DNA of 59,747 bases, the filler included. It is 5 parts of 5 records of this genome, joined end to end, with 100 filler letters (N's around TTAATTAATTAA, not from the genome) between each part and the next. Parts side by side here need not be neighbours in the genome. Positions count along the whole stretch, not along the records: positions 27,373 to 47,532 come from SRR31156797_1625; 4 more parts are not named here. The stretch is one strand, 5' to 3'. The position numbers and the translations under genes were made by a program. Under the pieces are notes generated by a model, which searched no databases, was not told where the DNA came from, and was given only the letters and a program-made list of their open reading frames with translations. Below, one piece after another: positions 9,111 to 47,339 of this stretch (positions are counted from its first letter, which is position 1; each line of letters starts with the position of its first letter).

Positions 9111-9162
9111 TATTTACTTCTTAATGGAGTATCTTCCACCCCCCAAAGGGTATCTAAAAAAC

Positions 9163-9372
9163 ATCCTCGAGGATGATTTCTAGATCCTCAAGGATGTATT
9201 GGAGATCTTCGAGGATATATTTTAGTTCTTCGAAGATGTTTTTTAGTTCCTCCAGGATGATGCTGATATCTTGAAAGATCTAAATTTGATCCTCCAGGAT
9301 GTATTTTTGGTCCTGAAGGATATATTTTTGATACGTAAAGATCATTTTTTTATCCTCCAGGATATTTTTTAG
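9163..9372. repeat. Tandem array of ten degenerate 21-bp units with palindromic core ATCCTCGAGGAT
   Basis: Units start at 9163, 9184, 9205, 9226, 9247, 9268, 9289, 9310, 9331 and 9352 with an exact 21-bp period, between two convergent genes. Confidence 0.9.
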
Positions 9373-9376
9373 CTAA

Positions 9377-10183
9377 TTACCTCTTTTTATAATATTTCAT
9401 AGCTTCTGGAAGATAAGCTCGAAGATTCTGAACACGTGTATCATCAGCTGGATGAGTAGATAAGAACTCTGGTGGTTTTTGTCCACCACTCTCGCCCATT
9501 CTTTTCCAAAACTCAACTGCTTCGGCTGGATCGTAACCTGCCATTGCCATGAATATCAAACCCATTTTATCTGCTTCTGTTTCATGTGATCGAGAGAATG
9601 GAAGCATTACACCAACATTGGCACCAACTCCAAATGCAGTCATCCAAATTTGTTGAGTCTCTGCTGGTTTCTCGCTAAGAGCAATCGCCAATCCCTGACC
9701 TAAAGCCTGAATTCCCATTTGCTGACTCATTCTTTCGTTACCATGGCGAGCAATTGCATGAGCAATTTCATGTCCCATTACAACAGCCAATCCTGCTTCG
9801 GTTTGCGTGTATGGTAAAATTCCCGTGTAAAAAACCACCTTTCCACCAGGCATACACCAAGCATTAGGTGTATCATCTTCTACTAAATTAAATTCCCATT
9901 GAAAGTTTTCAATTCTATCACTCATCCCATTTGCAGTCATAAACTCTTCAACGGCTTTGGCTATTCGATCACCACAAGACTTCACCATTGCGGTTTTTGC
10001 TTTATCTGTTGACAGTTTATTCTCCTTTAAAAAAGTATCATACTGAGTTAAACTGGTAGCAATCATTTCACTTTCGGGGAAAAGGTTCATTTGTTTCCTC
10101 CCTGTAATAGGAACAGTAGCACATGCTGCCAATATCAGAACTAATCCTGATAACAATACATTACGAATTTGTTTGCTTGTCAT
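9377..10183 (-). CDS. M48 family zinc metallopeptidase, lipoprotein
   Basis: Lipobox LAAC, PNAWCMPGG, HEIAH (HEXXH), ETEAD, FLSTHP. Confidence 0.92.
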   Translation of the reverse strand: MTSKQIRNVLLSGLVLILAACATVPITGRKQMNLFPESEMIATSLTQYDTFLKENKLSTDKAKTAMVKSCGDRIAKAVEEFMTANGMSDRIENFQWEFNLVEDDTPNAWCMPGGKVVFYTGILPYTQTEAGLAVVMGHEIAHAIARHGNERMSQQMGIQALGQGLAIALSEKPAETQQIWMTAFGVGANVGVMLPFSRSHETEADKMGLIFMAMAGYDPAEAVEFWKRMGESGGQKPPEFLSTHPADDTRVQNLRAYLPEAMKYYKKR

Positions 10184-12493: not shown

Positions 12494-13093
12494 ATGGTAA
12501 AACAAGCCAATTTATCTGATGAAAGTACTGTCGTTGATATTATCACAGAATCTTTCAAGAACAATCCTAGCGTAATATCATCTGTAAAAAATGATGATAA
12601 GTTAGATATGCGAATTGAAGAGTTGGCGAGATATGCTTTTCGGACGGCAATATCAAGAAATGGAGTATTACTTTCATCCAATAATAAAGGAGTAGCCATT
12701 TGTTACCACTTTAATATCAAGAAAACTTCCTTTACTGATTATTGGAATCAAATTCGATTGGTTTGCAAGGCAATTGGTATTTCTAAGGTTTTCACCTTAT
12801 TGAAAAGAGAGAAATACATTAATAAAATTAGACCTAAAGAAAGAAATTACTTGTATTTCTGGTTCTTTGGTGTAAAAGAATCCTACAGAGGAAGTGCGGC
12901 AGCAAAGGAATTAAAAACTGCCATATTTAAAGAATCAGATGATAATCAATTACCGATATATCTGGAAACTTCAGTTGAGCAGAACAAAATTGTATATCAA
13001 CGATTTGGATTTGAAATATATCATAGCTGGCATAGAAAGGATCATACCCTATGGTTTATGAAACGTGATCCTAAATTTGTAAACTCTATTTAG
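12494..13093 (+). CDS. GNAT-fold N-acetyltransferase
   Basis: YLYFWFFGV...RG, LPIYLETS...N...YQRFGF motifs. Confidence 0.75.
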   Translation: MVKQANLSDESTVVDIITESFKNNPSVISSVKNDDKLDMRIEELARYAFRTAISRNGVLLSSNNKGVAICYHFNIKKTSFTDYWNQIRLVCKAIGISKVFTLLKREKYINKIRPKERNYLYFWFFGVKESYRGSAAAKELKTAIFKESDDNQLPIYLETSVEQNKIVYQRFGFEIYHSWHRKDHTLWFMKRDPKFVNSI

Positions 13094-13159
13094 AATCCTA
13101 CGGTAAGATATTTTCTATACTTTAGATATTTCAGTCTAAAACTAAACATTTACTAAGAA

Positions 13160-13525
13160 ATGAAAACAAACCTTATAGAAAGCTTTAAAAATATTGACAA
13201 CTACTTTTCTCCAAAAGTTATGGGTGAAGTAAACGATGCCTATGTTAAAATTGCCAAAATAAAAGGCGATGAAGTTCCGTGGCACGATCATAAAAACGAA
13301 GATGAGATGTTTTTTATTCTTGAAGGAAATTTACTTATGGAAGTAGAAGGCATGGAATCTTTTACAATGAACAAGGGAGACATGTATATCGTTAAAAAGG
13401 GCGTTCAGCATAGAGTTTCATCTACCAACGAGTGTAAAATCATGTTAATTGAAAATAAGAGCACTGCACATACAGGAGATGTAAAATCGAATATTACTAA
13501 GGATATTAAGGATCAACTATATTAA
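13160..13525 (+). CDS. Cupin domain protein
   Basis: WHDHKNEDEMFFILEG and V.KGVQHR cupin motifs. Confidence 0.88.
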   Translation: MKTNLIESFKNIDNYFSPKVMGEVNDAYVKIAKIKGDEVPWHDHKNEDEMFFILEGNLLMEVEGMESFTMNKGDMYIVKKGVQHRVSSTNECKIMLIENKSTAHTGDVKSNITKDIKDQLY

Positions 13526-31275: not shown

Positions 31276-34200
31276 TTAAACCATCTCATCCGCAATCATC
31301 ACTGCCTGTTTCAGCACGGTTTCGGTCGCGAGCTTCTGCATATCGGGCGGGTAGCCGTATTTGCGGAGCAGCCGTTTTACAGCCACTTTCAGTTTAGCCC
31401 GCACGCTTTCTTTTATCGTCCAATCTATGGAGGCGTTCTTTTTTACTGTTTCGGATAAAACAACTGCCAATTCCCGCAACCTGTCCTGCTGCATCAGTTC
31501 GCGTGCGCTGTCGTTGTTGGCCACGGCTGTGTAAAAGGCGTATTCATACTCCGAAAGCCCCATACTTTTAGCCTCGCTGTCTATCTCCACGATGTGCTTA
31601 CTCAGTTTTATCAGTTCATCCATCACCTCTGCTGCCGTCAGGATTTTGTTGTGATACTTCTTTATCGAGTTTTCCAGCATCTCCATCAGGCTTTTGCTTT
31701 TTACCAGATTCTTTTTTGAGCGTGACTTTATTTCATCGTTGAGCAGCTTTTTCAACACTTCCAGGGCCACATTTTTATGCTCCATCCCTTTTAGTTCAAG
31801 CAAAAATTCCTCAGACAGTATAGAAATATCTGGTTTCTTTATGCCGGCTGCATCGAATACGTCTACTACTTGTTCTGATATGAGTGCCTGGTCGATAACC
31901 TGCCGGATGGTTGTATCAATGTCCACCCCGTTTTTACCTTCGCTTGTGGCCTCAAATTTTACCAGCCTGGCTTTTACAGCCTGGAAAAACGAGACTTCCT
32001 CCTTCACATCCATGGCCTGTTCATGCGGGATGGCGATAGCAAATGCTTTTGACAGGGCTGTGACTTCGTTGATAAAACGTTTTTTGCCATCGTCGATGCT
32101 CAGTATGTGTTCCTCGGCACGAAGAATCAGGGACAACTTTTCGGATGTGCCGGCCTGGAAATAATCTTCATAAGGTAAATCATGAAATAGGTTTGAAACG
32201 ACTTCCAATTTTTCCTGCATAAGTTGTACGGCCTGCTCCTGGGCAATGGCCGGATCGCCTTTACCACCCGAATCTGAATAGAACGACAGGGCTTTTTTCA
32301 GGTCGGATGCGATGCCGAGATAGTCAACCACCAACCCGCCGGGTTTATCCTTGTAAACCCGATTTACACGCGCAATGGCCTGCATCAGGTTGTGTCCCTG
32401 CATGGGTTTGTCGATGTACATGGTGTGCAGGCACGGCACATCAAAACCTGTAAGCCACATATCCCGCACAATCACCAGTTTGAGTTCATCATCCGGGTCT
32501 TTCATTCGGTCGGCAAGGGTTTTGCGTTGCTCTTTGGTGGTGTGGTGTTTGGCAATTTTCGATCCCTCAGAGGATGAAGCGGTCATCACCACCTTTATCG
32601 CGCCTTTGTTCAGTTCATCTGAATGCCACTCTGGCCGCAGATTAATTATTTCATCGTACAGGTCAGCAGCTATCCTTCGCGACATGGCCACGATCAAACC
32701 TTTGCCTTCGAAAACCTCCTGGCGTTGCCCGAAATGTGTAATGATGTCTTTTGCAACCCGCTTAACCCGGTTTTCACTTCCAACAAGTGCTTCTAATTGT
32801 GTCCACTTTGCTTTGGCTTTCTGTGTTTGGTCTAAATCTTCGCTTTCCAACTGCTTATCCAGGTCTTCAACCAGCTTTTTGCCTTCGTCACTGAGATTAA
32901 CCTTGGCTAACCGGCTTTCGTAGTAAATGCGCACGGTGGCACCATCTTCAACAGCTTTGGCAATGTCATAGACATCGATGTAATTGCCGAAAACTGCCGG
33001 TGTGTTTACATCGGTTTTTTCGATCGGCGTACCTGTAAAACCAATAAAGGTTGCGCTGGGCAATGCATCGCGCAGATATTTAGCGAATCCATAAACGATC
33101 TTTTTCCCGATTACATCACCAGCATCATTTTTATCATCAATGGTCTTCGCTTTAAATCCATATTGCGTTCGGTGGGCTTCATCTGCTATCACAACAATGT
33201 TTTTACGATCAGACAGGGTTTCGTACACATTGCCATCATCGGGTTGAAATTTTTGGATTGTTGTAAAAACTACACCACCGGAAGCCACCCTAAGTTTTTC
33301 TTTCAGGTCTTCTCGGTTTGCTGCCTGTTTGGGCTCCTGTCGCAATAGTTGTGTGGATGATGCGAAAGTATCAAATAACTGGTCGTCCAGGTCGTTTCGG
33401 TCGGTAATCATCACGATGGTTGGGTTATCCATGGCCAAAACCAGTTTCCCGGTAAAAAACACCATCGACAGGGATTTGCCACTACCCTGTGTGTGCCATA
33501 CAACGCCTCCTTTACGATCTCCGGCAGGCTGCGCTTTTACACCTGGTAAGCCATAGTTTTTAGGCGATTCCGAAAGGTTTAGTAACGGGTTGTTATCGTG
33601 TTGTTGATAGTTACTTGCCCGCAATGCAGATTCGATGGCTCGGTTAACAGCATAATATTGGTGGTAAGCAGCCAGCTTTTTTACCGTTTTTATTGTGACC
33701 ACACCTGTTTCCAGGTCTTCGGTTTTGGATTTTTCAAAAACAATGAAATGCCTGATTAAGTCCAGGAGCGTTTTTTTATTGAGCATCCCATTGGCAACTG
33801 TTTCAAGCTGCCCGATTAAGTTTGAGGCTTCAGCCTGGCCATCAGCGGATTTCCAGGCCATGAACCGTGTTAAACCCGCCGAAATGGTACCGGCCTTTGC
33901 TTCCAGACCATCCGAAATAACCGAAAAGGCATTGAATGTAAATAGGTGCGGTATCGCTGCCTTGTAAGTATCAATCTGGTTAAATGCACTTTTGATGGTG
34001 GCCTTTTCATCCGCGGCGTTTTTCAACTCCATTACTACCAGGGGAAGGCCGTTGACAAAAAGAATAACGTCAGGTCGCTTATTTACACCCTGCTCAACCA
34101 CAGTAAATTGGTTGGCAACCACAAAATCGTTGTTATCCGGATTGTTGAAGTCGATGAGCCAAACCAGATCGCCGCGCTGGTGGCCGTCCTTTTGATAGCT

Positions 34201-34497
34201 TACCTTAATGCCTTCGGTTAGCATCCGGTGGAAGGTTTCGTTGTTGGTTAGTAATTCAGGCGAATGGATGCGGTTAACCTCCTTCAGGGCTTCTTCCAGT
34301 TGTTCACCCGGAAGGTTTGGGTTTATCCGGCTGACAGCATCCCTAAGCCGTTGGGATAGTATTACATCCTCGTAACTGCTGCGTTCGGGTTTCGGGCCAT
34401 CGTGAGCGATGTCGGGGCCGTGAATGTAGTGGTAGTCGTTATCCGTTAAGAGTTCGACAACCATTTGTTCTATATCTGATTCGATTAGCTTGTTCAT
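31276..34497 (-). CDS. hsdR: Type I restriction endonuclease subunit R
   Basis: RPDVILFVNGLPLVVMELK nuclease motif, HTQGSGKS, DEAHR, FTGTP, MWLTGFD, QAIARVNR. Confidence 0.97.
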   Translation of the reverse strand: MNKLIESDIEQMVVELLTDNDYHYIHGPDIAHDGPKPERSSYEDVILSQRLRDAVSRINPNLPGEQLEEALKEVNRIHSPELLTNNETFHRMLTEGIKVSYQKDGHQRGDLVWLIDFNNPDNNDFVVANQFTVVEQGVNKRPDVILFVNGLPLVVMELKNAADEKATIKSAFNQIDTYKAAIPHLFTFNAFSVISDGLEAKAGTISAGLTRFMAWKSADGQAEASNLIGQLETVANGMLNKKTLLDLIRHFIVFEKSKTEDLETGVVTIKTVKKLAAYHQYYAVNRAIESALRASNYQQHDNNPLLNLSESPKNYGLPGVKAQPAGDRKGGVVWHTQGSGKSLSMVFFTGKLVLAMDNPTIVMITDRNDLDDQLFDTFASSTQLLRQEPKQAANREDLKEKLRVASGGVVFTTIQKFQPDDGNVYETLSDRKNIVVIADEAHRTQYGFKAKTIDDKNDAGDVIGKKIVYGFAKYLRDALPSATFIGFTGTPIEKTDVNTPAVFGNYIDVYDIAKAVEDGATVRIYYESRLAKVNLSDEGKKLVEDLDKQLESEDLDQTQKAKAKWTQLEALVGSENRVKRVAKDIITHFGQRQEVFEGKGLIVAMSRRIAADLYDEIINLRPEWHSDELNKGAIKVVMTASSSEGSKIAKHHTTKEQRKTLADRMKDPDDELKLVIVRDMWLTGFDVPCLHTMYIDKPMQGHNLMQAIARVNRVYKDKPGGLVVDYLGIASDLKKALSFYSDSGGKGDPAIAQEQAVQLMQEKLEVVSNLFHDLPYEDYFQAGTSEKLSLILRAEEHILSIDDGKKRFINEVTALSKAFAIAIPHEQAMDVKEEVSFFQAVKARLVKFEATSEGKNGVDIDTTIRQVIDQALISEQVVDVFDAAGIKKPDISILSEEFLLELKGMEHKNVALEVLKKLLNDEIKSRSKKNLVKSKSLMEMLENSIKKYHNKILTAAEVMDELIKLSKHIVEIDSEAKSMGLSEYEYAFYTAVANNDSARELMQQDRLRELAVVLSETVKKNASIDWTIKESVRAKLKVAVKRLLRKYGYPPDMQKLATETVLKQAVMIADEMV

Positions 34498-34565: not shown

Positions 34566-35435
34566 CTACAAAAACGACTTAATTCCGTTCCATAATGATA
34601 GTTTTTTCTGGTATGGTATAGCTGCATTTGCCGAGCTTGTTGACGGTAAACTCAATAATTTAACCCCATTGATGCTCCCGAAATGCTTTCCAAATAGCTT
34701 TGCGGCTTCTTTTCCGTTAAATGCAATGGCTTTTATGGTGTTGTTTTTTGTAATAAAGGCTTCCAGACCGTTTGGCACAGCATCTTTTATGTCTGCATCC
34801 AGGCTTCCTTCTCTAAAACACGACTGACAAACATCCCAAACAGCAATTCCACCATCAAGCAACATCTTTTTACGTTTTTCATAATTTACAGGAATCGGTT
34901 CGCCTAATAATTCTCCTATAAGTTTCCAGAATAGGTTGAGTGAATTGGCGTAGTACTGTTGCTTTTTCAGGGATTCATTACCGGGCATTGTTCCTAATAT
35001 AAGAAATTTACTTTTTTTGTCAACAATCGGGTCGAACCCAACGATTTTATTCTCAATATCGGTTGGGTCTGGTTCAACAGGATGCTGATTTTGTGAAAAA
35101 AGCCCACTACTTTTCCTTTTTGGTGGGGCCGCAAAGCCCAATTTGCCAACTTTTTTAGCCACTCTTTCTCGTTTAGGCAAACCATCCGGCTGTGCGCCGC
35201 TCCAAGAAATGTCTATCCGGTTGCCATGATGGATTGCTTTAAAGCTAATACTGTCTTTATGGCCTACCTTTTTGCCATCAAAGGTGTACGATTCGATGAA
35301 GTCCTTGCTTTCATGATCAATGTTTACAATTAGCGTGTCGCCATCAGTAACCTTCTTTGTGTCGATTTTGTAGGGTGACGATTCGGAAGCTCTGGTTTTA
35401 GTACGAATGGTTCGGTTTCTGATTATTTCTGCCAT
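34566..35435 (-). CDS. DNA-deoxyinosine glycosylase (UDG family 6-like) with an extra N-terminal domain
   Basis: C-terminal part has LILGTMPG.ESL..QQYYAN..N.FW, GIAVWDV, GSLDADI, FNGK and LPSTSSAN; the first ~125 aa are unassigned. Confidence 0.85.
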   Translation of the reverse strand: MAEIIRNRTIRTKTRASESSPYKIDTKKVTDGDTLIVNIDHESKDFIESYTFDGKKVGHKDSISFKAIHHGNRIDISWSGAQPDGLPKRERVAKKVGKLGFAAPPKRKSSGLFSQNQHPVEPDPTDIENKIVGFDPIVDKKSKFLILGTMPGNESLKKQQYYANSLNLFWKLIGELLGEPIPVNYEKRKKMLLDGGIAVWDVCQSCFREGSLDADIKDAVPNGLEAFITKNNTIKAIAFNGKEAAKLFGKHFGSINGVKLLSLPSTSSANAAIPYQKKLSLWNGIKSFL

Positions 35436-35470: not shown

Positions 35471-35860
35471 TTACAAGCGATGATGTTTTGCGATATCGCC
35501 AAACTGCCTACGTTTCATTATTTTGGCTTGCTCGTGTGAGTAAAATGGATCCACTTCGGCCCTGAAATCCTTTTTTTTAAACCGATCCGGGTCTTTCGCT
35601 TCAATGCGTTTGCGGTTGGTGTATTTAAACCAGGCGCATTCAAACTCTGTTACCGGTTGCGTTTCCATGTGGCTCACCTGCACAAAATGATCCTGGTCTT
35701 CGTTAAGCGGTTCAAGATCGCCGGATGTAAGGGCGCTAAACCAATGTCCCCACTTTTCGAGCAATTCGATTTCGTCTGCTGAAAAGATGGCTCTGTTGCA
35801 ATCAATAGTGAATGAGCCTTTTTTCTTGATGTGGTCCCGATGATCCTGCCTGGTGCTCAT
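35471..35860 (-). CDS. DUF413 / MaoP (YifE)-like protein
   Basis: FS..E..LLE.WG....AL..G.LEP....Q.HFV.V.....P.TE.E.AW.KY pattern recalled for DUF413. Confidence 0.72.
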   Translation of the reverse strand: MSTRQDHRDHIKKKGSFTIDCNRAIFSADEIELLEKWGHWFSALTSGDLEPLNEDQDHFVQVSHMETQPVTEFECAWFKYTNRKRIEAKDPDRFKKKDFRAEVDPFYSHEQAKIMKRRQFGDIAKHHRL

Positions 35861-35866
35861 ATTGGG

Positions 35867-36526
35867 TTATGATTTTGATGATTTTGTAAATGCGCTGTAT
35901 TTATCCAGCCACAGTTTATAAAATTTGATGCGGGTGGCCGGTAGGTGGGGATAAGGAAAAATGTTCCGTTGCAGCAGGTTTTCTGTTTTGCTGCAAAACC
36001 TGAATTGCCCGGTTCCGGATTTGGTTTTTTTATCGTAACCCCAATAATGGTTTACTTGCGCCTGATCTCCGGCCAGCAATTTAAGTACCGGCAGGCCGAG
36101 CGTAATGATCTTTGCTTTTGGATAGGTTGCAAGTTCACCGCGTAGCAGTTCCAGATTGGGCTGCAAGTGAGCTTTAAGCACGTCAAAAGTTTGTTCCGGG
36201 GGTACACTGTAAAAGTATTTAAAAACGTTTGTAGCGTAGATTTCATCAAACGGGATTTCGAGCTGTTGGCAAACTCGTTGTAGGTACTTGCGTAAGCTGC
36301 CGGGTTTATCCAGGTTGAGGGTGTATTCAATTTTGTTTCGGGTGGCTTCGTTTTGTATGGTGGGGTCTTGCCCGATGATGATCAGCGAAACTTTGTTGGT
36401 GGTGCGGTAGGGTAATACCGGAAGCAGGGAATCATCAATTGAGTTAGCCGCATCATCAGCGGTTTGTTTTAGTTTATCCCTGATTGCCAACGATTGCATA
36501 AATACATCCGTAGTTTTCATAGGCAC
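35867..36526 (-). CDS. Divergent uracil-DNA glycosylase superfamily protein
   Basis: IIIGQDP motif 1, IYATNVFK, IITLG and C-terminal FPYPH motif 2. Confidence 0.75.
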   Translation of the reverse strand: MPMKTTDVFMQSLAIRDKLKQTADDAANSIDDSLLPVLPYRTTNKVSLIIIGQDPTIQNEATRNKIEYTLNLDKPGSLRKYLQRVCQQLEIPFDEIYATNVFKYFYSVPPEQTFDVLKAHLQPNLELLRGELATYPKAKIITLGLPVLKLLAGDQAQVNHYWGYDKKTKSGTGQFRFCSKTENLLQRNIFPYPHLPATRIKFYKLWLDKYSAFTKSSKS

Positions 36527-36547
36527 TTAATCTTTTATTCTCACCTC
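36527..36547 (-). repeat. Short degenerate copy of the hsdS 3' end (copy D)
   Basis: GAG GTG AGA ATA AAA GAT TAA = EVRIKD*, 17/21 nt identical to the end of copy B; abuts the start of the UDG-like gene. Confidence 0.55.
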
Positions 36548-36578
36548 GATAAAGGGTGAATTTCTAAATCATATGTTT

Positions 36579-37001
36579 TTAATCAAATTCATCAACACTG
36601 CCCACATATTTTTCAACTCCGATTATTCTATCAATTTCCTCTTCTAAATTCATTAAAGTATCTGGCCATTCGTCGGGCTCTTGCAGATAATGATCGATGG
36701 TCCGTTTCATGCCATCCTGCATTTCCACTGTGGACACACACGAGGGCATATCGGTCATAAAAACTTCAGGTTCTTGCGCTTGCAGGGCAAAGTAAGCACA
36801 TTTCAATAGTTGTTGATTAAGTTCGGTAAGGGCTTGCTTGCTGATATACCAAATATGCCTGCCTGTTTGTTCAACAAAATAATAGCCAGTGTATGTTACT
36901 CGTCCTGAATGATGGATGCTAACCTTGTAAACAGGACATGTGCCGTAGCATGGGGTTCGTTCGAGCTTTATTGCATTAAATTTTACCGGCATTTCTATCA
37001 T
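36579..37001 (-). CDS. DUF6438-like protein
   Basis: IKLERTPCYGTCPVYKVSI...G.V.Y.G and TDMPS motifs, recalled for DUF6438. Confidence 0.72.
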   Translation of the reverse strand: MIEMPVKFNAIKLERTPCYGTCPVYKVSIHHSGRVTYTGYYFVEQTGRHIWYISKQALTELNQQLLKCAYFALQAQEPEVFMTDMPSCVSTVEMQDGMKRTIDHYLQEPDEWPDTLMNLEEEIDRIIGVEKYVGSVDEFD

Positions 37002-37021
37002 TGCAACATTGAATTACCTTA

Positions 37022-37060
37022 TTACATTTTCACCCGCACTTCGCCACTCATCAGCTTTGG
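37022..37060 (-). repeat. Copy of the hsdS 3' end (copy C)
   Basis: Translates PKLMSGEVRVKM*; 37028-37057 is a perfect 30-bp match to 38048-38077. Confidence 0.92.
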
Positions 37061-37102
37061 GAATCATCAACCTTACATTTCTACGTTGGGTGGATGTGTT
37101 AT

Positions 37103-37501
37103 TTATTTAGCATCATACTTGTTCAGAACTCTTTTTAATTCTCCAATTCTACTCATTAAATGTGTATTCCCTTTTATATATTTTTTTATTTTCTCAAAGT
37201 CATCCTTGTTTACTATTTCTTCGCCTAAGTTTGTTTTGTTGTATTCTGATTCATCCTGAAGATATGCCGATAAAGCCAAAATACATAAATCAAAACATCG
37301 GTGCAATGGCATCTCCTCGCTTTGACGGCTCCATTTTTTACCTGTATGTCTCCATATTTTAGCTGAAATATCATTATTGTTCCATTGTGCTTTTCCAATT
37401 GATAAAGCCTTGCAATCGGAATTGTTAGCATATTTACCATCGTGTTTGTCGTAATTATCTGCCACTAAAATGGGCTTGTGCAATAGATGTTTTGGATACA
37501 T
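37103..37501 (-). CDS. DUF6530-like protein
   Basis: LLHKPI...DG.YA..SD.KALSIG.AQWN...DISAKIWRHTG.KWSRQSEEMPLHR..DL; AAGGAGG RBS upstream. Confidence 0.75.
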   Translation of the reverse strand: MYPKHLLHKPILVADNYDKHDGKYANNSDCKALSIGKAQWNNNDISAKIWRHTGKKWSRQSEEMPLHRCFDLCILALSAYLQDESEYNKTNLGEEIVNKDDFEKIKKYIKGNTHLMSRIGELKRVLNKYDAK

Positions 37502-37528
37502 TTTTAATCCTCCTTTAAAATTTGAAAT

Positions 37529-37604
37529 TTAATATTTAACTCTAACCTCCCCACTCATTAGTTTCATAAGCTGTGTATCCCGCAGTTTTTCTATGGTGCG
37601 GATT
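37529..37604 (-). repeat. Diverged copy of the hsdS 3' end (copy B)
   Basis: Translates IRTIEKLRDTQLMKLMSGEVRVKY*, versus native IRTLEKLRDTLLPKLMSGEVRVKL*; in frame, with many third-position differences. Confidence 0.92.
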
Positions 37605-37624
37605 TATTTTTGATAAATTAATTC

Positions 37625-38029
37625 TCATTTGCCTTTATTTTTCGTCATGAAAACACGCACCCTGTCAAAATCCTGCCAATCTTTAGGTTTAAAATTTAAA
37701 TTTACATTCTCATCCTTATTTTGTAGATGGCGAAGCATGCTATTCTTCCATTCCTTTTTGATTTCATTGGAAAAGTACCCCTTTTTCATGTGGTACAATT
37801 GCTCATTAAATAATCCCAGTAGGTCATCTCTCAACACTTTTATGTTTGCGTTTTTTCCACATTGAAGTTCACGAACAATCCTTCGGTATTCAGCCGTGCA
37901 TTTATTCATAACAACCAGATTATTAGACTGTATGTTGATAATAAGGCTTCCTGCAGCTATTATGATTCCTATAGCCATAAATAGGTCAATTATCATATCA
38001 AATGTTACTGTAGCTTCCAATAATACCAT
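37625..38029 (-). CDS. Hypothetical protein with N-terminal membrane anchor
   Basis: 134 aa, one TM (LFMAIGIIIAAGSLII) and a helical soluble part; starts 12 nt after the hsdS stop. Confidence 0.65.
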   Translation of the reverse strand: MVLLEATVTFDMIIDLFMAIGIIIAAGSLIINIQSNNLVVMNKCTAEYRRIVRELQCGKNANIKVLRDDLLGLFNEQLYHMKKGYFSNEIKKEWKNSMLRHLQNKDENVNLNFKPKDWQDFDRVRVFMTKNKGK

Positions 38030-38041
38030 AGCTCTATTTTT

Positions 38042-39235
38042 TTATAATTTCACCCGCACTTCGCCACTCATCAGCTTGGGCAGCAGCGTATCCCGGAGCT
38101 TTTCGAGTGTGCGGATTTGGGTATTGTTCAATTCTTGTTTTTCATTGTAAGTTTTCGCTATTTCGTTGAATCGTTGAATTTTATCCATTGAAGGTAGGTT
38201 AAACTTAACCCATTCAACACCATCCTTTGATAGCATGTTAACTGTACTTCCATTTGTAGCTCCGGCTATTTGTTCATGTACATCTTTGGTTTTTAATAAA
38301 TGGAATAGGAAGTAACTTGATAACTGTGATTTGATTTTTAGGCGATAAATGTGTTGTGAAAAAATACCAAAATCACCAAATGTCTCTGGAACAATTGCAG
38401 GATAGCCGATTAATAAATGTTCATGTCCCTGTTCAGTATTGGTTATTATTACGTCACCAGGAAATACTTTATGTCTTTCTTTAAATTCTCCTTTGTAGTA
38501 TTTGATGCCAGCTTCTTTATAACCACCGCCTTCATAAATTGAATTGAGGTTGTGCATTGGCATGCCTCCATGACAGTCTGTAAGCCCACTACCCTTATAG
38601 CTAAGCCCTCTTTGAACTTCAACAAATTCATCAAGTTGATGCCATTCATTAACATTTTTCGCTTCCTCAACAAACCACTGCCTAAAAAGCGTTTCGGCCA
38701 TTTGTTCCAGGGTTTTGTTTTGGCGGTGGAGCAGGTCTATTTTGTCGTCGAGGCTGCTGAGCACGGCGGCAATGGCGCGTTGCTCGGGGAGGGAGGGGAG
38801 TATGAATTGATGCTGTTTTACCACATCAGTTTGCACTCTTTGCCTTCCTGAACTACCCGTCATTGATTTAATTGCAGAAAAGCGAATTGTTGGAGAAATT
38901 GCTAAATAATATACAAAATGCTTATCTGAAACATTCTCTTTTTCACGAAGAACGATAAATTCAGTTGAACCAAAACCGATTTCATCTTCATCTAAAATAT
39001 CTACAAATGAAGTTTTTCCGTTTTCAAGGCTTGGTGTAATACGAGCCATTAATGTATCACCATTTTTAAACTTAACTCCACCTTTGTATTCCTCTATTGA
39101 ATAACTTGGAATTCTTTTCGTAAATGGCTGAATTATTTCCATCGGGATTTTCTTTGCGATCTTTCCCTTTGGAATTCTTTCAGTAGGATTAATATCCGCA
39201 AAGTCCCCTAATTTATAACCTTTCCACTCACTCAT
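38042..39235 (-). CDS. hsdS: Type I restriction-modification specificity subunit
   Basis: Two TRDs separated by the conserved LPSLPEQRAIAAVLSSLDDKI...LFRQWF spacer; C-terminal LEKLRDTLLPKLMSGEVRV. Confidence 0.96.
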   Translation of the reverse strand: MSEWKGYKLGDFADINPTERIPKGKIAKKIPMEIIQPFTKRIPSYSIEEYKGGVKFKNGDTLMARITPSLENGKTSFVDILDEDEIGFGSTEFIVLREKENVSDKHFVYYLAISPTIRFSAIKSMTGSSGRQRVQTDVVKQHQFILPSLPEQRAIAAVLSSLDDKIDLLHRQNKTLEQMAETLFRQWFVEEAKNVNEWHQLDEFVEVQRGLSYKGSGLTDCHGGMPMHNLNSIYEGGGYKEAGIKYYKGEFKERHKVFPGDVIITNTEQGHEHLLIGYPAIVPETFGDFGIFSQHIYRLKIKSQLSSYFLFHLLKTKDVHEQIAGATNGSTVNMLSKDGVEWVKFNLPSMDKIQRFNEIAKTYNEKQELNNTQIRTLEKLRDTLLPKLMSGEVRVKL

Positions 39236-39482
39236 TAATCTCTATCCTTAGTAAATCATCGAGTGCAATACCGCCATCATAAGGCATATCGGCTGCACCT
39301 TTAAGCATTTGAATTCTGATGCCGATTCGGTCATTTTTAATTGCAGGTGTGTCATTAAAGGTAAATTCAACCCTCCCTTTATATTTAATTGGTTTTCCAT
39401 TCTCCATAATTGAAAATACAACAGAAGTATTTTTATCAATCTGGTTTTCTGTTATAAACTGCATGATTTCATTTCTATTCAT
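39228..39482 (-). CDS. Hypothetical 84-aa protein inserted between hsdM and hsdS
   Basis: Its ATG overlaps the hsdM stop and its own stop overlaps the hsdS ATG; it ends LRIEINE*, like HsdM (LKIEINE*). Confidence 0.65.
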
Positions 39483-41022
39483 TGATCTCAATTTTTAAAA
39501 AATTCGTGGTAATGCGTTTATTGAGCTCGGCTTCTTCTTTGAGTTGGGCTTCAAACTCGGCTTTAAGCTGCGTAAATCTATCGTTAAAATCAAAATCATC
39601 CTCTTCTTCGGCCAGGCCAACGTAACGTCCTGGGGTCAATACATAGTCCAGTTCCTGAACCCTTTGGATGGGCGCCGAGTTGCAAAAGCCTTTCACATCC
39701 TCGTATTCACCATCGGGATTGCGCCAGTTGTGGTAGGTTTCGGTTATCGTTTGTATGTCTTCATCCGAAAGTTCGCGTGTACGGCGGTTGATCAGGTGGC
39801 CCATGTTACGGGCGTCAATAAACAGAATTTCTCCGCTGCGGTCGCGGTATTTGCCGTTTGTCCGGTTACGCCGCATAAACCACAGCGAAGCCGGTATTTG
39901 CGTGTTCAGGAACAGCTTTGCCGGCAGGTTCACAACGCAGTCAATCAGGTTTTCATCAATCAGTGCTTTGCGGATTTCGCCTTCACCACTGCTCTTAGAA
40001 GTTAAAGCACCCTTTGCGAGCACAAACCCGGCCTGTCCGGTTGGTGCCATGTGATACAGGAAATGCTGTATCCAGGCGTAGTTGGCGTTTCCCGTAGGGG
40101 GCACACCGTGTTTCCAGCGGCCATCCTTGCGTAGTAAATCACCGCTCCAGTCGCTAACGTTAAAAGGCGGATTGGCAATAATGAAATCGGCTTTCAAGTC
40201 TTTGTGGGCATCGTTCAGGAACGATCCTTCGTTGTTCCACCTCACCTGCGAACTGTCTATGCCACGAATGGCCAGGTTCATTTTGCACAGCCGCCAGGTG
40301 GTTTGGTTGCTTTCCTGCCCGTAAATGGATATGTCGTTGATTCGCCCCTGGTGTTCCAGTACAAACTTCTCAGACTGGACAAACATACCACCGGAACCAC
40401 AACAGGGGTCGAACACCCTGCCCTGGTATGGTTCAAGCATACGAACCAGCAGTTCAACCACACTGCGTGGCGTGTAGAACTGTCCACCCTTTTTGCCTTC
40501 GGCCAGGGCAAATTCACCTAAAAAATATTCAAAAACGTGCCCAAGCACATCCGCACTGCGGGATTTGGTATCTCCCAAGGCAATGTTTCCTATCAGGTCG
40601 ATCAATTCACCCAGGCTGGTGGGATCGAGGTTTTGCCGTGCATACACTTTGGGTAGCACACCTTTTAATGATGGGTTTTCCCGCTCTATCACATCCATGG
40701 CATCGTCAACAGTCTTGCCGATGGTGGGCTGTTTGGCGTGGCTCATCAGGAACTTCCAGCGTGCTGATGGCGGCACAAAAAATACGTTTTCGGCCTTGTA
40801 TTCGTCTTTGTCTTCAGGGTCGGCACCTTCGTATTCGCCTTCACCGGAAAGCAGCTTTTCGTACAGTTCCAGGAACGCATCGCTGATGTATTTGAGGAAG
40901 ATCAGGCCGAGTACCACATGTTTGTACTCCGCTGCATCTATGTTTTTCCGTAGTTTATCCGCTGATTTCCAGAGTTGTTTCTCCAGGGGTTCCTCTTTAG
41001 GGATTGAGGCTTTCTTTGCCAT
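39475..41022 (-). CDS. hsdM: Type I restriction-modification N6-adenine methyltransferase subunit
   Basis: [27 protein letters not shown] (motif I), NPPF (motif IV), LTPGRYVG. Confidence 0.97.
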
Positions 41023-41173: not shown

Positions 41174-41641
41174 TTAATCGATCATCTCCTCGAATTCATC
41201 CTCGATGTCGTTGCCAAGTTCGTTGTCTGGGTCTTTCTGGTTGGCAGTAATGTGTAGGTTATCTTTAATGGCCTCAAAAATGCACTGTTTAATGGTATCA
41301 TCGAATGTGGTATTCGTTAGTGGTTTGTCGATCTCCCGGAGTGTGAAATCAGCATAAATGTAGGTTAACAGTTCGATCTGAGGCTGGGTGAATTTGAGTA
41401 TTATTCCTTTGTATTCATCCGAAGAAAGCTGAATACCGGAGATGCACTGGAGTTTTTCATTTTCGGCCTTTAGCCGCTGGTTATCTTTTTCCAGTTTTTG
41501 TATTTGCTGGCTGTCCAGCAATGCGCGGTTACGCACGAACTTCGACAAGCTAATGTTTAGTTCCTGCGCTGTTTGGTTGAGTTTTGCCTTTTCGGCTGCG
41601 GTCACCTGGAAGGTGATTGTTGTTTTGTTGTTTGGTTTCAT
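41174..41641 (-). CDS. Ribbon-helix-helix (MobC/CopG-like) DNA-binding protein with coiled coil
   Basis: TITFQVTAAEKAKLNQTAQELNISLSKFVRNRAL is an RHH pattern, followed by heptads IQKLEKDNQRLKAENEKL. Confidence 0.65.
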   Translation of the reverse strand: MKPNNKTTITFQVTAAEKAKLNQTAQELNISLSKFVRNRALLDSQQIQKLEKDNQRLKAENEKLQCISGIQLSSDEYKGIILKFTQPQIELLTYIYADFTLREIDKPLTNTTFDDTIKQCIFEAIKDNLHITANQKDPDNELGNDIEDEFEEMID

Positions 41642-41783: not shown

Positions 41784-43250
41784 TTAAGCAGCCTGATCAT
41801 CAATTACGTTATTTCGTTTTTCATGGTTTTCTGCTTCAGGCAATTTTAAATTGGGATCGTTTTGGTCTGCATCATGGGCGCGCTGATATAATTTAGCTTT
41901 CCCCTTTTGTTTTTGGATGATATAGCCTTCATTAACGTAATAATCCCTAAAAAGACGTGCTTTAGAGTTCCCAAAGGAATCATAGTAAGTTGCAGACAGA
42001 TCACAAATAGCTTTATCCATTTCTGTACTGTTTAATTCTGTGTGACGCGAAAAAATTTCACAAACAGCATTTTTATGATCCATAGCTGCATAGTCGTCTG
42101 GGTCGATTCGACGGGTTGGGCTACCTTCTATTTCACATAGTTCCGGTAGACCATTCTCATTTATTCTAAAAGCAAAAGGGGGAAATTCGATATTTCTACC
42201 GAATTCAGTTTTCACTAAGGAGACCTCCCTATTTGATGAGCTTTTACTTATGTTGATGGTGGATTCGGCTTTGTTAACGATTTCTGAACCAAGGTGGCCA
42301 CGAGCATTTTGGTCATTTTTATTTTGGTGTAATACAACAATGATGCTGATCTCATAATCATGAGTCCAGGTCATTAGCCGATCTACTATCATTGTAGCTT
42401 GGTCAGGGCTGTTTATATCAGTAAGTAAATCCCTAATACCATCAATCACAATCAGGCCAAGATTTGGTGTGTTCTGGATTGCGTATTCAATTAATTTCAG
42501 TCGATTTTCGGTACTTTTGTTTCGCAATTGGAAAACACGTAGGTTTTTTCTTTCGCCCGCTTGCCTTACAATCCGTTCATAAGTTTTATAGACATGGTAG
42601 TTAGATTGTTCAGTGTCAAAATGTAATACCTTTTTTTTACCATGAGGTAGTTCCCCCTTCATATTTAATGTTTCTTGTCCAAGAGCAGCCGCGATAGCAG
42701 CAGTAAGCGCAAATGTTTTCCTTGATTTTGCTTTTCCGATTATCGCGATAAAGTTCCCCAGTGTGGCGACAATTTGTCCGTCGATCCTTAGTGCTACCTG
42801 TGGTGCGCTTGGCGGATTATTATAGTCAAGTTCGGCTTTATTAAGTTCAGACTCTATTGAATCATAAGTATTTATACTGTTACGCATGTTTTGTTTTGAG
42901 GGGATGGACTGGTCATTGATGTTTCGGATGCCAAACTGGTGCTCTCGCTTATAAGCGTTATTAATGCAGCGACGAATTTCTGAGTCTCCAAAGCCTGGTT
43001 GCTGGAATTTAAGTAGTTCAGTTTCGGTTTCATGCTTGGGAATGCCGTATCGATTGCAAACTGAAGCATAGCGGTGAATGTAGTTGTTGCGATTATTGTT
43101 TTTAAATGGTATTTGCATCTTCTGGTGGAATGCATCAAAGATTTGTTTGTCACCAGTTGAATTTTGTTTTTTGTTTTTCTGCCATTTAACTGGTAGGTTC
43201 GATGGTAGTTTGTGAGCTATTTTTTTTCGTAGTTCTTTTGATTTCGCCAT
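41784..43250 (-). CDS. PriCT-like domain plus AAA/RepA-type (SF4-like) helicase
   Basis: RNNYIHRYA...GI...EI...INNAYK (primase C-terminal-like), Walker A GKAKSRKT, FDTEQS, IVIDGIRDL, VLHQNK, RGHLGSE. Confidence 0.8.
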   Translation of the reverse strand: MAKSKELRKKIAHKLPSNLPVKWQKNKKQNSTGDKQIFDAFHQKMQIPFKNNNRNNYIHRYASVCNRYGIPKHETETELLKFQQPGFGDSEIRRCINNAYKREHQFGIRNINDQSIPSKQNMRNSINTYDSIESELNKAELDYNNPPSAPQVALRIDGQIVATLGNFIAIIGKAKSRKTFALTAAIAAALGQETLNMKGELPHGKKKVLHFDTEQSNYHVYKTYERIVRQAGERKNLRVFQLRNKSTENRLKLIEYAIQNTPNLGLIVIDGIRDLLTDINSPDQATMIVDRLMTWTHDYEISIIVVLHQNKNDQNARGHLGSEIVNKAESTINISKSSSNREVSLVKTEFGRNIEFPPFAFRINENGLPELCEIEGSPTRRIDPDDYAAMDHKNAVCEIFSRHTELNSTEMDKAICDLSATYYDSFGNSKARLFRDYYVNEGYIIQKQKGKAKLYQRAHDADQNDPNLKLPEAENHEKRNNVIDDQAA

Positions 43251-43960
43251 AAAGAAAAAAGTTTAGGGTTGATAAAACAATTTGGATCATGGCATAACCA
43301 GCAGGCGCGGGCTATGTCACTGGTTGCAACATCAAGATAGTTGTAAAAGTCGGGATGTTCTTCCTCGATATATAGGGTTACTAATTGATAGAGTTCGTTG
43401 TGGTCTGTAACTGCCGTATCAGGATTATATTTGGCATCGGTGTCGGACAGGATTGCCTTCAAACCATCTCCGCCGGGGGAAGTAAACATTAGTTGCGGGT
43501 CGAGCATTTCATCGCGTGCCAGGGTTTGTTTAACCTGCTCCGGGTCGGGCACATGATCGAAGTCTAACACGATATATGAACTGCGCCAGCGCAGGGCATG
43601 GGACTTGCGTTCACTAAATACTCCGCTGACCGTGAAGAAGTCAAAGCTGTTCTTCTTTAGATGCGAATTAGGGTTATTTCTGTAATCGGCTGTTGTTTTT
43701 GCAAAATAATCTCCTTTGATTACCTCATAGAGCTGCATGATGTCTATTTGGCGATAAGGTATTAGATTGGTTATCGGTGCTCTATAGTAGCTGAATTTGG
43801 GTAAATGAAGTTCATAGTTCCCTTCATATATATCGAACAATAACTTATTATTTACCGGGTAGTTAAACCTTCTTGACAGTTCATCTATCGTGTATACGCT
43901 GTGGTAAATTGCCCTAATCTTACTGTGAATTTGACATGCAATTTCAATTGGTATCTTCAT
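43217..43960 (-). CDS. BT4734/VirE-N family primase-polymerase-like protein
   Basis: FTVSGVF..R, IVLDFDHV, FTSPGGDGLK, D....DIARACWLCHDP. Confidence 0.82.
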   Translation of the reverse strand: MKIPIEIACQIHSKIRAIYHSVYTIDELSRRFNYPVNNKLLFDIYEGNYELHLPKFSYYRAPITNLIPYRQIDIMQLYEVIKGDYFAKTTADYRNNPNSHLKKNSFDFFTVSGVFSERKSHALRWRSSYIVLDFDHVPDPEQVKQTLARDEMLDPQLMFTSPGGDGLKAILSDTDAKYNPDTAVTDHNELYQLVTLYIEEEHPDFYNYLDVATSDIARACWLCHDPNCFINPKLFSLWRNQKNYEKK

Positions 43961-44566: not shown

Positions 44567-44830
44567 TTACTTCTTTGTTTTGACCCACTCAAGTAATTCA
44601 TTCTCAAAAAAATACAACTTTTTACCTCGGCGGGTGTGTGGTATTCGTTTTTTGGATGTCAAACCATAAATGGTGTGTTTGGATTTGTGCAGAAACTGTG
44701 CAGCCTCATCAATTGTCATGGGCTTCTGTGATGTCTGTTGATTGTTCTGAATCATTAGTTGTGTTTGCTTGACCAGTGATTCAAGATCGTTGAACCGCTG
44801 GTCGATTTGTAAGAAAGGGTTTGTGCTCAT
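44567..44830 (-). CDS. Excisionase-like helix-turn-helix protein
   Basis: MSTNPF start at 44830; PMTIDEAAQFLHKSKHTIYGLTSKKRIPH.RRGKKLYF...EL..WV; TATATTTG -7 box at 44864-44871. Confidence 0.88.
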   Translation of the reverse strand: MSTNPFLQIDQRFNDLESLVKQTQLMIQNNQQTSQKPMTIDEAAQFLHKSKHTIYGLTSKKRIPHTRRGKKLYFFENELLEWVKTKK

Positions 44831-44966
44831 TTTTTTAATTTTAATTAATAAATAAATGAGCGGCAAATATAGTGAGCGCTTAGGCTGAAGGCCGTACCAT
44901 AAATACCCACAACCCAAAAGAAATTCTGGGTAATTTTGGGTATAATATTACATAAAGTGCGCTGTT

Positions 44967-45965: not shown

Positions 45966-47339
45966 TTAAATCAAGTTCGTAATCATATTTTGAATTTCTG
46001 TATGTTCATCATCGTCAAACTGCCCTAAATAATGGATGGTGGTTTTTAAATCTGCATGGCTTAATTGCTTTTTTATATAGCTGACGGGCACACCCTTTTT
46101 ATCGGCAATGCTTGCCCATGAGTGTCTTGCAGTCATAACCGTAACCGGTTTTTTAATGCCCATCTTATCCGCTATTCTTTGTGTGTAATTACCGGTGGTT
46201 TTTGTTGTGGTAGATAGTTTTCGTATTCGTTCTTTTTCATTCTTCGTATCGTTAAATACAGGCAGTACATAGTTGTATTCGGCTTTGTCTTTGTTTCCGA
46301 TTCGGTCAATGATTTCTTTTATCTGTTTTGAATACACGATTTTTACGGGTTCAGGCTCGCTGCTGCTGTTGTGAGTCTTAGCGCGGTAAAATGTGATAAA
46401 GCCGTCTTTAATATCCCGGTATTTTAATGACAACAGGTCTTTGCTGTTGCAGCCACACAAGTAAAAATGCAGCAGCCATATGTCCAGATAATAGCGTTCT
46501 ATTTCACTGACGGTTTTATAGTTAACAAGTTTTTTAACTTCCTTTTCGTTGAGGGCAACGTAACTGTTTCTTTTTTGGGCAATTATTTTGAACTTCTTTT
46601 CACCGAAAGGGTATTCAAGGCCAGGAAGGGATTTACCGTATTCATTAAAAATTGCCCGGATGTATTTGGCGTAAACTGTAAATGTGGCCGGGGAGTTTAA
46701 TTTCGGCTTTACTGGTGCATATTTATTAGTCAATTGTTTTCTGGAAGACGGATCATTTTTAACGTACCGGTTTAAATGCCATGACTGAAAACGTCTTAAA
46801 AACTGAGGAGTTATTTCGTAAAAAGAAATAACCCGCTTGCCCCTGAATTCAATCAAGCTGTTTAAGCAGGCACTGTACCCGGCTGCAGTTCTGATGCGGT
46901 CGCTTTTTTGTAATTCATCTATGTGCATTTCAAATGCCTGAACAATATTCTCCGGGTTATCATCCTGTTTGTTTTCTCCCTGGAAATATTTTTCTTTAAA
47001 GGCGCTAAAATTAAACACCTCCATCCGCGAAATAAATTGATCAACTTCCTGTGCTTCCTCATTCAAAACCTGCCACAGTCGTTTATAGATTCCATCACGC
47101 ATTGCATTTTTGGCTTTCTCGTAATCCGTTTTCTTCATTGCAAAATCCTCACGCCCATCGTACTGGAAATCCTGAAAGTCCAGGTCGGACAACCGTTCGT
47201 TCATTTTGTGTTTTGATATTCCGTAGTACCGGGTTTTACCCTGATAAGTTATCCTTATTTTTACTGGGTAATAATTATTTGCTTTAGGCTGCCGTTTTTC
47301 AAGTACTATTGAAACCGAAGGTGCTTTGCGTGCGCTCAT
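45966..47339 (-). CDS. Tyrosine recombinase/integrase (Bacteroidota type)
   Basis: Arm-binding N-terminus (YPVKIRITY...YY), SAM-like core-binding region, catalytic R.KT, ARHSWA and LSH....TT.HYL; adjacent to the att site. Confidence 0.93.
   Translation of the reverse strand: MSARKAPSVSIVLEKRQPKANNYYPVKIRITYQGKTRYYGISKHKMNERLSDLDFQDFQYDGREDFAMKKTDYEKAKNAMRDGIYKRLWQVLNEEAQEVDQFISRMEVFNFSAFKEKYFQGENKQDDNPENIVQAFEMHIDELQKSDRIRTAAGYSACLNSLIEFRGKRVISFYEITPQFLRRFQSWHLNRYVKNDPSSRKQLTNKYAPVKPKLNSPATFTVYAKYIRAIFNEYGKSLPGLEYPFGEKKFKIIAQKRNSYVALNEKEVKKLVNYKTVSEIERYYLDIWLLHFYLCGCNSKDLLSLKYRDIKDGFITFYRAKTHNSSSEPEPVKIVYSKQIKEIIDRIGNKDKAEYNYVLPVFNDTKNEKERIRKLSTTTKTTGNYTQRIADKMGIKKPVTVMTARHSWASIADKKGVPVSYIKKQLSHADLKTTIHYLGQFDDDEHTEIQNMITNLI

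Follow-up and report, generated by a model that had tools for sequence, protein, structure and literature searches.

The DNA analysed here, a stretch of 59,747 nt including filler (from here: the window), carries a type I restriction-modification (R-M) operon in the part derived from SRR31156797_1625 (positions 27,373-47,532; all window coordinates refer to the whole stretch). In this operon hsdS and hsdR are separated by small cargo genes, and among these genes stand short copies of the 3′ end of hsdS. Such hsdS-end relics recur in related operons. They are short, lie on the hsdS strand and are confined to the interval between hsdS and hsdR, and in some loci they are fused to copies of the start of hsdR, forming composite joints. 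With moderate confidence, we read the relics as scars left where modules were repeatedly inserted by recombination at the conserved borders of a cargo slot, accompanied by duplication of the target.

The hsdS end and its copies in the window are the following:

38042-38119, minus strand: native hsdS 3′ end (tail A), 78 nt including the stop codon; tail profile E = 2.5e-23.
37529-37605, minus strand: hsdS-end relic B, about 78 nt, 73% identical to A, with a stop codon before B; repeat search, profile E = 7.6e-12.
37022-37063, minus strand: hsdS-end relic C, about 40 nt, of which 30 nt match A perfectly; repeat search, profile E = 2.7e-7.
36527-36547, minus strand: probable hsdS-end relic D, 21 nt, 17/21 identical to B; shuffle test, not significant by profile.

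The repeat search returned a direct repeat of 78 nt (37528-37605 and 38041-38118, 73% identity, spacing 513) and a second one of 42 nt (37019-37060 and 38039-38080, 90% identity, spacing 1020). Translated in frame, tail A reads QIRTLEKLRDTLLPKLMSGEVRVKL, copy B IRTIEKLRDTQLMKLMSGEVRVKY and copy C ...FPKLMSGEVRVKM, each closed by a stop codon and B also preceded by one; the terminal residues are ...LMSGEVRVKL, ...LMSGEVRVKY and ...LMSGEVRVKM, respectively. Along A, B, C and D the stops are 513, 507 and 495 nt apart, and the next gene starts 12, 27, 20 and 0 nt after the stop of A, B, C and D. Repeat search and translation thus bear out the original prediction, made from the letters of the sequence, in the places of A, B and C, in the three spacings and in a gene start 0-27 nt behind each copy. 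All window copies are direct, at most 78 nt long and free of recognition-domain sequence.

The three relics differ in what they share with the native end. Copy B has no perfect run of more than 10 bases in common with A. Its mismatches to A fall on codon positions 1, 2 and 3 in the ratio 4/3/15 (15 of 22 on the third position), corresponding to 12 synonymous versus 5 non-synonymous codon differences. Because the differences are mostly at third positions, copy B appears to be the end of a different, once-functional hsdS allele that was coding before it became a relic, in agreement with its earlier assignment to a separate allele. Copy C shares a perfect run of 30 nt with A at a distance of 1020 bp, as had been claimed. 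The alternative that C spans the full tail as a hybrid whose 5′ half has diverged was rejected, with 758/2000 and 1096/2000 shuffles scoring as well; since there is no tail similarity upstream of C, it is a truncated relic and not a diverged full copy. Copy D, described from the start as the weakest, matches copy B at 17/21 positions and is the sole other site in the window, on both strands, that reaches 17/21 to A, B or C, where dinucleotide shuffles lead one to expect 0.09 such sites per window (100 shuffles). Under the profile of 36 native tails it scores -3.5 bits (E = 0.48 in a 162-nt search); therefore D is a probable hsdS-end relic, not a certain one.

Recurrence was examined in genomes and in metagenome loci. 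A degenerate tail pattern, searched with at most one mismatch in 401 Bacteroidota genomes, matched 64 of them and gave clustered same-strand matches in three; the reversed-pattern control also matches some genomes, and single matches therefore include noise. All three clusters lie in operons whose HsdM and HsdR are 77-87% and 67-78% identical to those of the window. Moreover, 80 metagenome loci were picked with HsdM alone as the query (65-87% identity to the window HsdM), and a tail profile of 93 nt, built from 36 native tails, was run on both strands of 84 loci (857 kb). Every extra tail shared the strand of hsdS and fell within the hsdS-hsdR interval. The extra tails occurred in L142, L170, L171, L175 (two), L152 (weak), L112 (three), L113, L114 and the window (two), while the best minus-strand match had E = 3. 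A weak tail match in L138 (E = 0.94) sits within an open reading frame (ORF) of 226 amino acids (aa) and was dropped. Among the HsdM-picked loci a native tail was found in 41/80, and 6 of these 41 carry at least one relic at E<1e-3, counting relics of either border, hsdS tail or hsdR head.

None of the relics closes a full hsdS, and the ORFs entering them measure at most 71 aa. A same-strand gene starts about 0-70 nt after every relic, the third relic of L112 excepted. Tail relics begin at scattered places, over profile positions 3-72 of 93, which argues against a fixed recombination core. Perfect runs of at least 26 nt between native tail and relic were found in the window (30), L114 (31), L112 (27 and 26) and L175 (26), compared with 3 of 1749 between-locus tail pairs. 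The identities of tails within a locus fall into two classes, one nearly identical (0.78-0.90) and one at the background (0.62-0.69), the between-locus mean being 0.65.

Several peculiarities of individual tails were seen in passing. The native hsdS reads past its usual stop in L113 (6281-7975) and L142 (4058-5317), with C-terminal extensions of about 200 and about 20 aa, respectively. In the L175 relic at 13192-13310 the tail end is repeated internally over a short stretch (MSGAVSLSNCGEVRVKN and stop), and L112 has REP-like hairpin repeats after its tails as well as a 199-nt duplicated block that includes a tail. For the small tail-bounded units, five of the six spacings (513, 507, 495, 561 and 474; not 725) can be divided by three, which may be chance; over all stop-to-stop spacings the share is 6/12 and not significant.

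The second border of the slot has left relics as well. In L113, L171 and L175, translation upstream of the relics revealed an in-frame HsdR N-terminus (M..ITE..IE..AIE.L...G.EY) fused to an hsdS-end relic. With a profile made from the first 120 nt of hsdR, hsdR-start relics abutting tail relics were detected in L113 (E = 2.7e-20), L171 (1.4e-7) and L175 (8.5e-10, with a second, weak one), and others standing alone in L171 (1e-8), L115 and L134 (about 4e-5 each) and L161 (weak). Each of them opens with the start codon and extends over 35-94 nt. From its sequence, such a composite joint of hsdR start and hsdS end is the head-to-tail junction of two slot copies; the neighbouring modules keep native outer junctions, and L175 can be read as a series of three slots. 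No hsdR-start relic was detected in the window at E<=1, its joints being tail-only. In L169, L190, L182 and L114 this profile matched the real hsdR starts; the L169 and L190 matches were not counted as relics. A second complete operon in L171 was also rejected, its 516-aa protein being DUF900 by Pfam and not HsdM. In L188 (12753-13190) hsdR itself is internally deleted, with about the first 90 and the last 78 residues left in one 145-aa ORF.

Behind the relics of other loci stand single genes as well as larger modules, and the larger ones are recognised defence systems. Tail-bounded single-gene units are present in L114 (PDDEXK_3, 561 bp), L170 (a protein of the 23S_rRNA_IVP family, 474 bp) and L142 (an IS200-like Y1 protein, 725 bp). 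Modules behind relics comprise AbiP2 in L112 (8e-195, PADLOC), IetA (1e-68) with an S8 protease and HEC-01A (3e-170) with a DUF4276 protein in L175, an OLD-type ATPase with a UvrD helicase in L170, presumably of Gabija-like architecture, and a Schlafen AlbA_2 protein in L152, while SLATT and SMODS, an OLD-type ATPase and DUF900 lie between the tails of L171. The HEC-01 module follows a relic in L175 and stands directly after an intact hsdS in L178 (68% over 1829 nt), so that for this module the expectation that a cassette follows a full hsdS elsewhere holds. An L178-like tail in front of the L175 module was not found, the best match being L175's own tail (0.78). IS200-like Y1 transposase genes occupy the slot in L112 (5947-6408), L142 (5342-5803) and, as a partial copy, L114 (5508-6113); within slots they were seen in relic-bearing loci only, with one further copy outside the slot in L161.

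The window modules consist of the following genes:

37625-38029, minus strand: cassette 1, TM134, a 134-aa protein with a hydrophobic N-terminal segment; no known family.
37103-37501, minus strand: cassette 2, DUF6530, 132 aa; Pfam 3.1e-35.
36579-37001, minus strand: cassette 3, DUF6438, 140 aa; Pfam 2e-30.
35867-36526, minus strand: module 4, gene 1, UDG-superfamily protein of 219 aa (UDG219); Pfam UDG 1.6e-6.
35471-35860, minus strand: module 4, gene 2, DUF413 protein, 129 aa; Pfam 7.4e-14.
34566-35435, minus strand: module 4, gene 3, glycosylase of 289 aa with a 130-aa N-terminal extension (UDG289); NCBIfam TIGR04274.

The identities first given to the cargo (a DUF6530-like, a DUF6438-like and a UDG-like protein and a 134-aa membrane protein) are upheld, the last with a hydrophobic N-terminus and outside any family. 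The description as single-gene cassettes was correct in that the copies delimit compact units of a kind recurring in L114, L170 and L142; it fails for the fourth unit, a three-gene module (UDG219-DUF413-UDG289) that reaches up to hsdR. This extent of the fourth unit and the hsdR-start relics that partner hsdS-end relics elsewhere had been missed. UDG289 scores 178 bits against TIGR04274 (DNA-deoxyinosine glycosylase; cut-off 80) and is the sole cargo gene of the window that recurs in the hsdS-hsdR slot, namely in L175 and L172; the L175 homologue (56% identity, 8552-9394) lies in the first slot just before an hsdR-start relic. For TM134, no family was found in Pfam, PADLOC or NCBIfam, and a protein atlas gives unnamed clusters alone. 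None of the six cargo proteins belongs to a mobility family in these three collections.

The defence role of the window cargo would follow from position only. DNA glycosylases have been reported as defence proteins (PMC11078745; 10.1101/2025.10.29.685425), and hence the two UDG-family genes are plausible defence cargo. DUF6530, for which 611 relatives were found, is embedded in another class of R-M operon as well: in L002 (2387-7960) a 64%-identical gene lies between the type III genes mod and res, after an unassigned 223-aa protein.

According to the insertion reading, the hsdS-hsdR interval would act as the cargo slot of this type I operon family. Its borders would be the last ~90 nt of hsdS and the first ~90 nt of hsdR, whose DNA is conserved between otherwise different operons. 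Cargo modules would enter by recombination at these borders and duplicate them. The route proposed is that a circularised module enters through a single crossover, or one already flanked by border copies through a double crossover. Every insertion would therefore leave, between the newcomer and the older module, a short border copy without function. The outcome in the window would be four modules (TM134; DUF6530; DUF6438; UDG219-DUF413-UDG289) parted by relics B, C and D, with the newest module presumably next to hsdS.

RecA-type recombination needs a minimal identity tract of about 25-30 nt. Homologous crossover would operate where the tract is long enough; A and C may then represent the flanks of an inserted piece TM134-B-DUF6530, in which a foreign border such as B would have been carried along. 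Recombination between A and C would remove 1020 bp and could leave an intact hsdS ending VRVKM, a point of the original prediction with which the sequence agrees. The direct repeats would also permit exchange with other operons of the family. The route, if of this kind, would presumably depend on general homologous recombination, and the reading predicts that gain and loss of cassettes depend on RecA and on identity tracts of 25-30 nt.

Several observations weigh against this interpretation. The A/B pair itself cannot be a recent homologous crossover, because the longest perfect run common to A and B is no more than 10 bases, and a donor allele for relic B, sought among 67 tails, was not found (best match 58/78; no native tail above about 75%). 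Most loci lack relics: among 65 distant viral-contig loci one tail was detected in 40 and a second same-strand tail in none. The window cassette genes did not turn up behind hsdS elsewhere as the idea of travelling cassettes would have it, UDG289 apart; DUF6530 stands behind an hsdS end in 0/80 loci and near an hsdM in 1/80, and DUF6438 is hsd-linked in 0/30 loci (30 of 67 matches examined). The PADLOC models matched 0/6 of the window cargo proteins at E<=0.01. Contigs of the single run with this DNA, the probable source of the window, contained no recombination joint or length variant, a contig-level result that cannot show absence, and an empty-site allele of the window locus was not found, with 40 relatives of G225 lacking an orthologous locus. 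Furthermore, the favoured route leaves the origin of the first border duplication unexplained, and the shortness of the relics could also reflect later trimming. Overall, the earlier interpretation is partly supported.

Operons of the family without cargo do exist. In L129, L143, L154 and the E. coli locus L301 hsdS adjoins hsdR; these are not alleles of the window locus. In E. coli, 319 genomes have at least 80% of hsdM covered, and two of these operons were inspected: hsdR directly follows hsdS in L301, and an IS1 lies between a shortened hsdS and hsdR in L300, with no cargo other than IS in either. Inverted copies of the hsdS end were noticed in two viral-contig loci, L286 (14338-14378) and L295 (10460-10497), and probably represent the known phase-variable arrangement.

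A more far-reaching version of the insertion reading, put forward tentatively, takes hsdS end and hsdR start as portable recombination sites of a recombinase-free gene-cassette system, in which modules with a border copy would excise as circles through recombination of the repeats and re-insert, by host homologous recombination alone, into whichever operon of the family they meet; the four window modules might then be independent, unrecognised defence or counter-counter-defence modules. If true, type I operons would behave like integrons for defence genes and the relics would give exact module boundaries.

The strongest rival is a collapse of operons, which we consider possible but doubtful. 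Two type I operons would come to stand in tandem, by duplication or through the homologous operon of an incoming element, an illegitimate deletion of the redundant hsdR-hsdM-hsdS body would leave, between the two cargo sets, just the upstream hsdR start, the downstream hsdS end or both, and repeated rounds would build the array. The composite joints of hsdR start and hsdS end are exactly what such a deletion would leave. Foreign operons would also fit the divergence of relics B, L142 and L171, which differ from their native tails as unrelated loci do (0.63-0.69 versus the mean of 0.65). A further point in its favour is the probable location of the window operon on a mobile element with integrase, HTH_17, primase-like and NikA-like proteins. 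However, if deletions ended at random within hsdR (3.2 kb) and hsdS (1.2 kb), most relics should be long, whereas all those seen measure no more than about 95 nt, and two complete tandem operons occur in 0 of 84 family loci. Because of these two points the collapse model is ranked second. Moreover, it does not require the perfect native/relic runs of at least 26 nt observed in 4 loci.

Little credence is given to site-specific capture, in which the hsdS end would be the attachment site of a dedicated recombinase, either integron-like or serving non-autonomous elements that accumulate at the 3′ end of their target gene, and the relics would be copies of that site. The compact single-gene units with a repeated element of ~20-80 nt do resemble integron cassettes, a tyrosine recombinase lies 8 kb away (45966-47339), and the slots of three relic-bearing loci hold the IS200-like Y1 genes mentioned above (L112, L142, partial in L114). 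Against this, the break points spread over profile positions 3-72, and single-strand folding of tails A, B and C on both strands is no better than that of shuffles (z -1.31 to +0.93). The recombinase scores 36 bits where the integron-integrase cut-off is 265 and has the look of an integrase belonging to the mobile element; in the annotated cargo slots of relic-bearing loci no gene for a recombinase was noticed, and the hsdR-start relics would demand a second, unrelated site. Variable break points, ordinary folding and the lack of an integron-type integrase therefore make a site-specific system an unlikely source of the relics.

The least probable explanation, that the copies are kept as a promoter, translational-coupling mini-ORF (MSGEVRVK and stop) or RNA element needed by the downstream gene, travelling with it or selected after chance duplication, draws on the stop codon and native spacing to the next start kept in each relic and on the ATG-initiated mini-ORF of 8-9 codons ending just before the cargo start in most relics, but neither relic D nor the third relic of L112 has the ATG, the relics vary in length between 21 and ~90 nt, the same rationale has no application to hsdR-start relics, and DUF6530 (0/80) and DUF6438 (0/30) genes elsewhere have no such leader.

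The insertion reading finds its closest published counterpart in insertion with long target duplication, in which R-M units lie between direct repeats of the target, 46-423 bp long and in many cases extending across a stop or start codon (Furuta, Abe and Kobayashi 2010, PMC2853133). The two share a unit without transposase or integrase, target repeats of more than 30 bp and an intact target gene; A/B (78 nt) and A/C (42 nt) exceed this length, while D (21 nt) falls short. They differ in that the insert described there is an R-M system acquired in a single event, whereas here non-R-M cargo inside a type I operon forms serial arrays, and what is duplicated is in every case one or other of the two conserved operon borders.

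Embedded defence genes in type I R-M operons have been catalogued under the term 'guilt by embedding' (Payne et al. 2024 preprint, 10.1101/2024.01.29.577857), and the RptR paper, reporting DarTG2 between hsdS and hsdR, names this site 'a potential recombination hotspot' (PMC12255303). There, too, the cargo lies between hsdS and hsdR, and AbiP2, IetA and HEC-01 are among the cargo of the present loci; the retrieved passages deal with content, whereas boundaries are what the relics show here. In the searched passages of the Payne preprint, 'hsdS', 'homologous recombination' and 'remnant' are absent, and the one match to 'duplicat' concerns duplicate-sequence removal. Full-text literature searches, with supplements outside their scope, retrieved no account in which hsdS-end or hsdR-start relics mark the limits of embedded modules; the supplementary figures of Furuta 2010 and the supplementary tables of Payne 2024 may hold cases that bear on novelty. 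Within the known settings of embedded cargo and target-duplicating insertion, the present arrangement stands out by a clear structural signature, but the recombination mechanism is inferred.

Three other systems invite comparison. Integron arrays consist of compact, mostly single-gene units in one orientation, parted by repeats of ~60-140 nt beside a fixed platform, with additions at the platform end. The window units are similarly compact, of the same orientation, parted by repeats and placed beside a fixed platform, and addition at the platform end is plausible. In contrast to integrons, IntI and attI are lacking (the nearest tyrosine recombinase is the one 8 kb away), the repeats are coding-derived and show no attC-like folding into palindromes, the break points vary, and the route is likely general recombination. 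Orphan toxin/immunity modules of rhs and cdiA are displaced 3′ fragments of earlier alleles, each with a downstream partner gene. The likeness lies in a main gene followed by displaced 3′ fragments with their own partner genes and in homology kept for recombination, but the fragments there hold the variable functional part, while the relic here is the conserved end only, functionless, and its partners are unrelated cargo. Phase-variable hsdS invertons (PMC7672463) carry inverted partial copies with target-recognition domains that switch specificity. Additional partial hsdS copies near a type I operon are common to both arrangements; the window copies, unlike those of invertons, are direct, lack recognition domains and cannot change specificity, and thus do not constitute a shufflon.

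That defence genes are embedded between hsdS and hsdR was known already, unlike their route of entry and the boundaries of the modules. As physical scars, the relics answer the boundary question directly and constrain the route, pointing to serial border-duplicating insertion at two conserved sequences with slots joined head to tail. Should the pattern hold, relics may be used as boundary markers when embedded genes are mined, splitting 'embedded gene sets' into independent modules, as attC does for integrons, and the membrane protein TM134, DUF6530, DUF6438 and the UDG-DUF413-glycosylase trio become candidates for phage defence.

The operon itself runs on the minus strand in the order hsdM, hsdS, six small genes and hsdR (ORF list of the window), and by Pfam it is a type I system, with HsdM, HsdS (Methylase_S in two stretches) and HsdR all on this strand. 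Its remaining genes and their surroundings are:

39475-41022, minus strand: hsdM, 515 aa; Pfam N6_Mtase 7.6e-110, HsdM_N 1.1e-25.
39228-39491, minus strand: unassigned 87-aa ORF overlapping the hsdM end and the hsdS start; ORF list.
38042-39235, minus strand: intact hsdS, 397 aa; Pfam Methylase_S 3.3e-29, two stretches.
31276-34497, minus strand: hsdR, 1073 aa; Pfam HSDR_N 2.6e-51, SWI2_SNF2 3.1e-76, T1RH-like_C 1.2e-126.
41174-41641, upstream of hsdM: NikA-like protein.
41784-43250, upstream of hsdM: AAA_25 protein.
43217-43960, upstream of hsdM: BT4734-like primase domain.
44567-44917, upstream of hsdM: HTH_17 protein.
45966-47339, upstream of hsdM and 8 kb away: tyrosine recombinase; Pfam Phage_integrase 7e-11.

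Since the operon adjoins the NikA-like, AAA_25, BT4734-like primase and HTH_17 proteins and the tyrosine recombinase, it is probably cargo of an integrative mobilisable element. A blastn search of the 4.9-kb region against a plasmid collection matched pieces of hsdS alone, in 38 records, and left the cassettes unmatched. The 87-aa ORF at 39228-39491 had no match in Pfam, PADLOC or NCBIfam; in L112 an 87-aa ORF likewise follows hsdM (12973-13236), and ORFs of 173 and 271 aa lie between it and hsdS. Another contig of the same run, 8 kb long and with a depth of 331, matches the central conserved region of hsdS alone (window 38660-38756), differing there at 12 positions. The sample that contains the window also has an abundant second type I system, of a related family.

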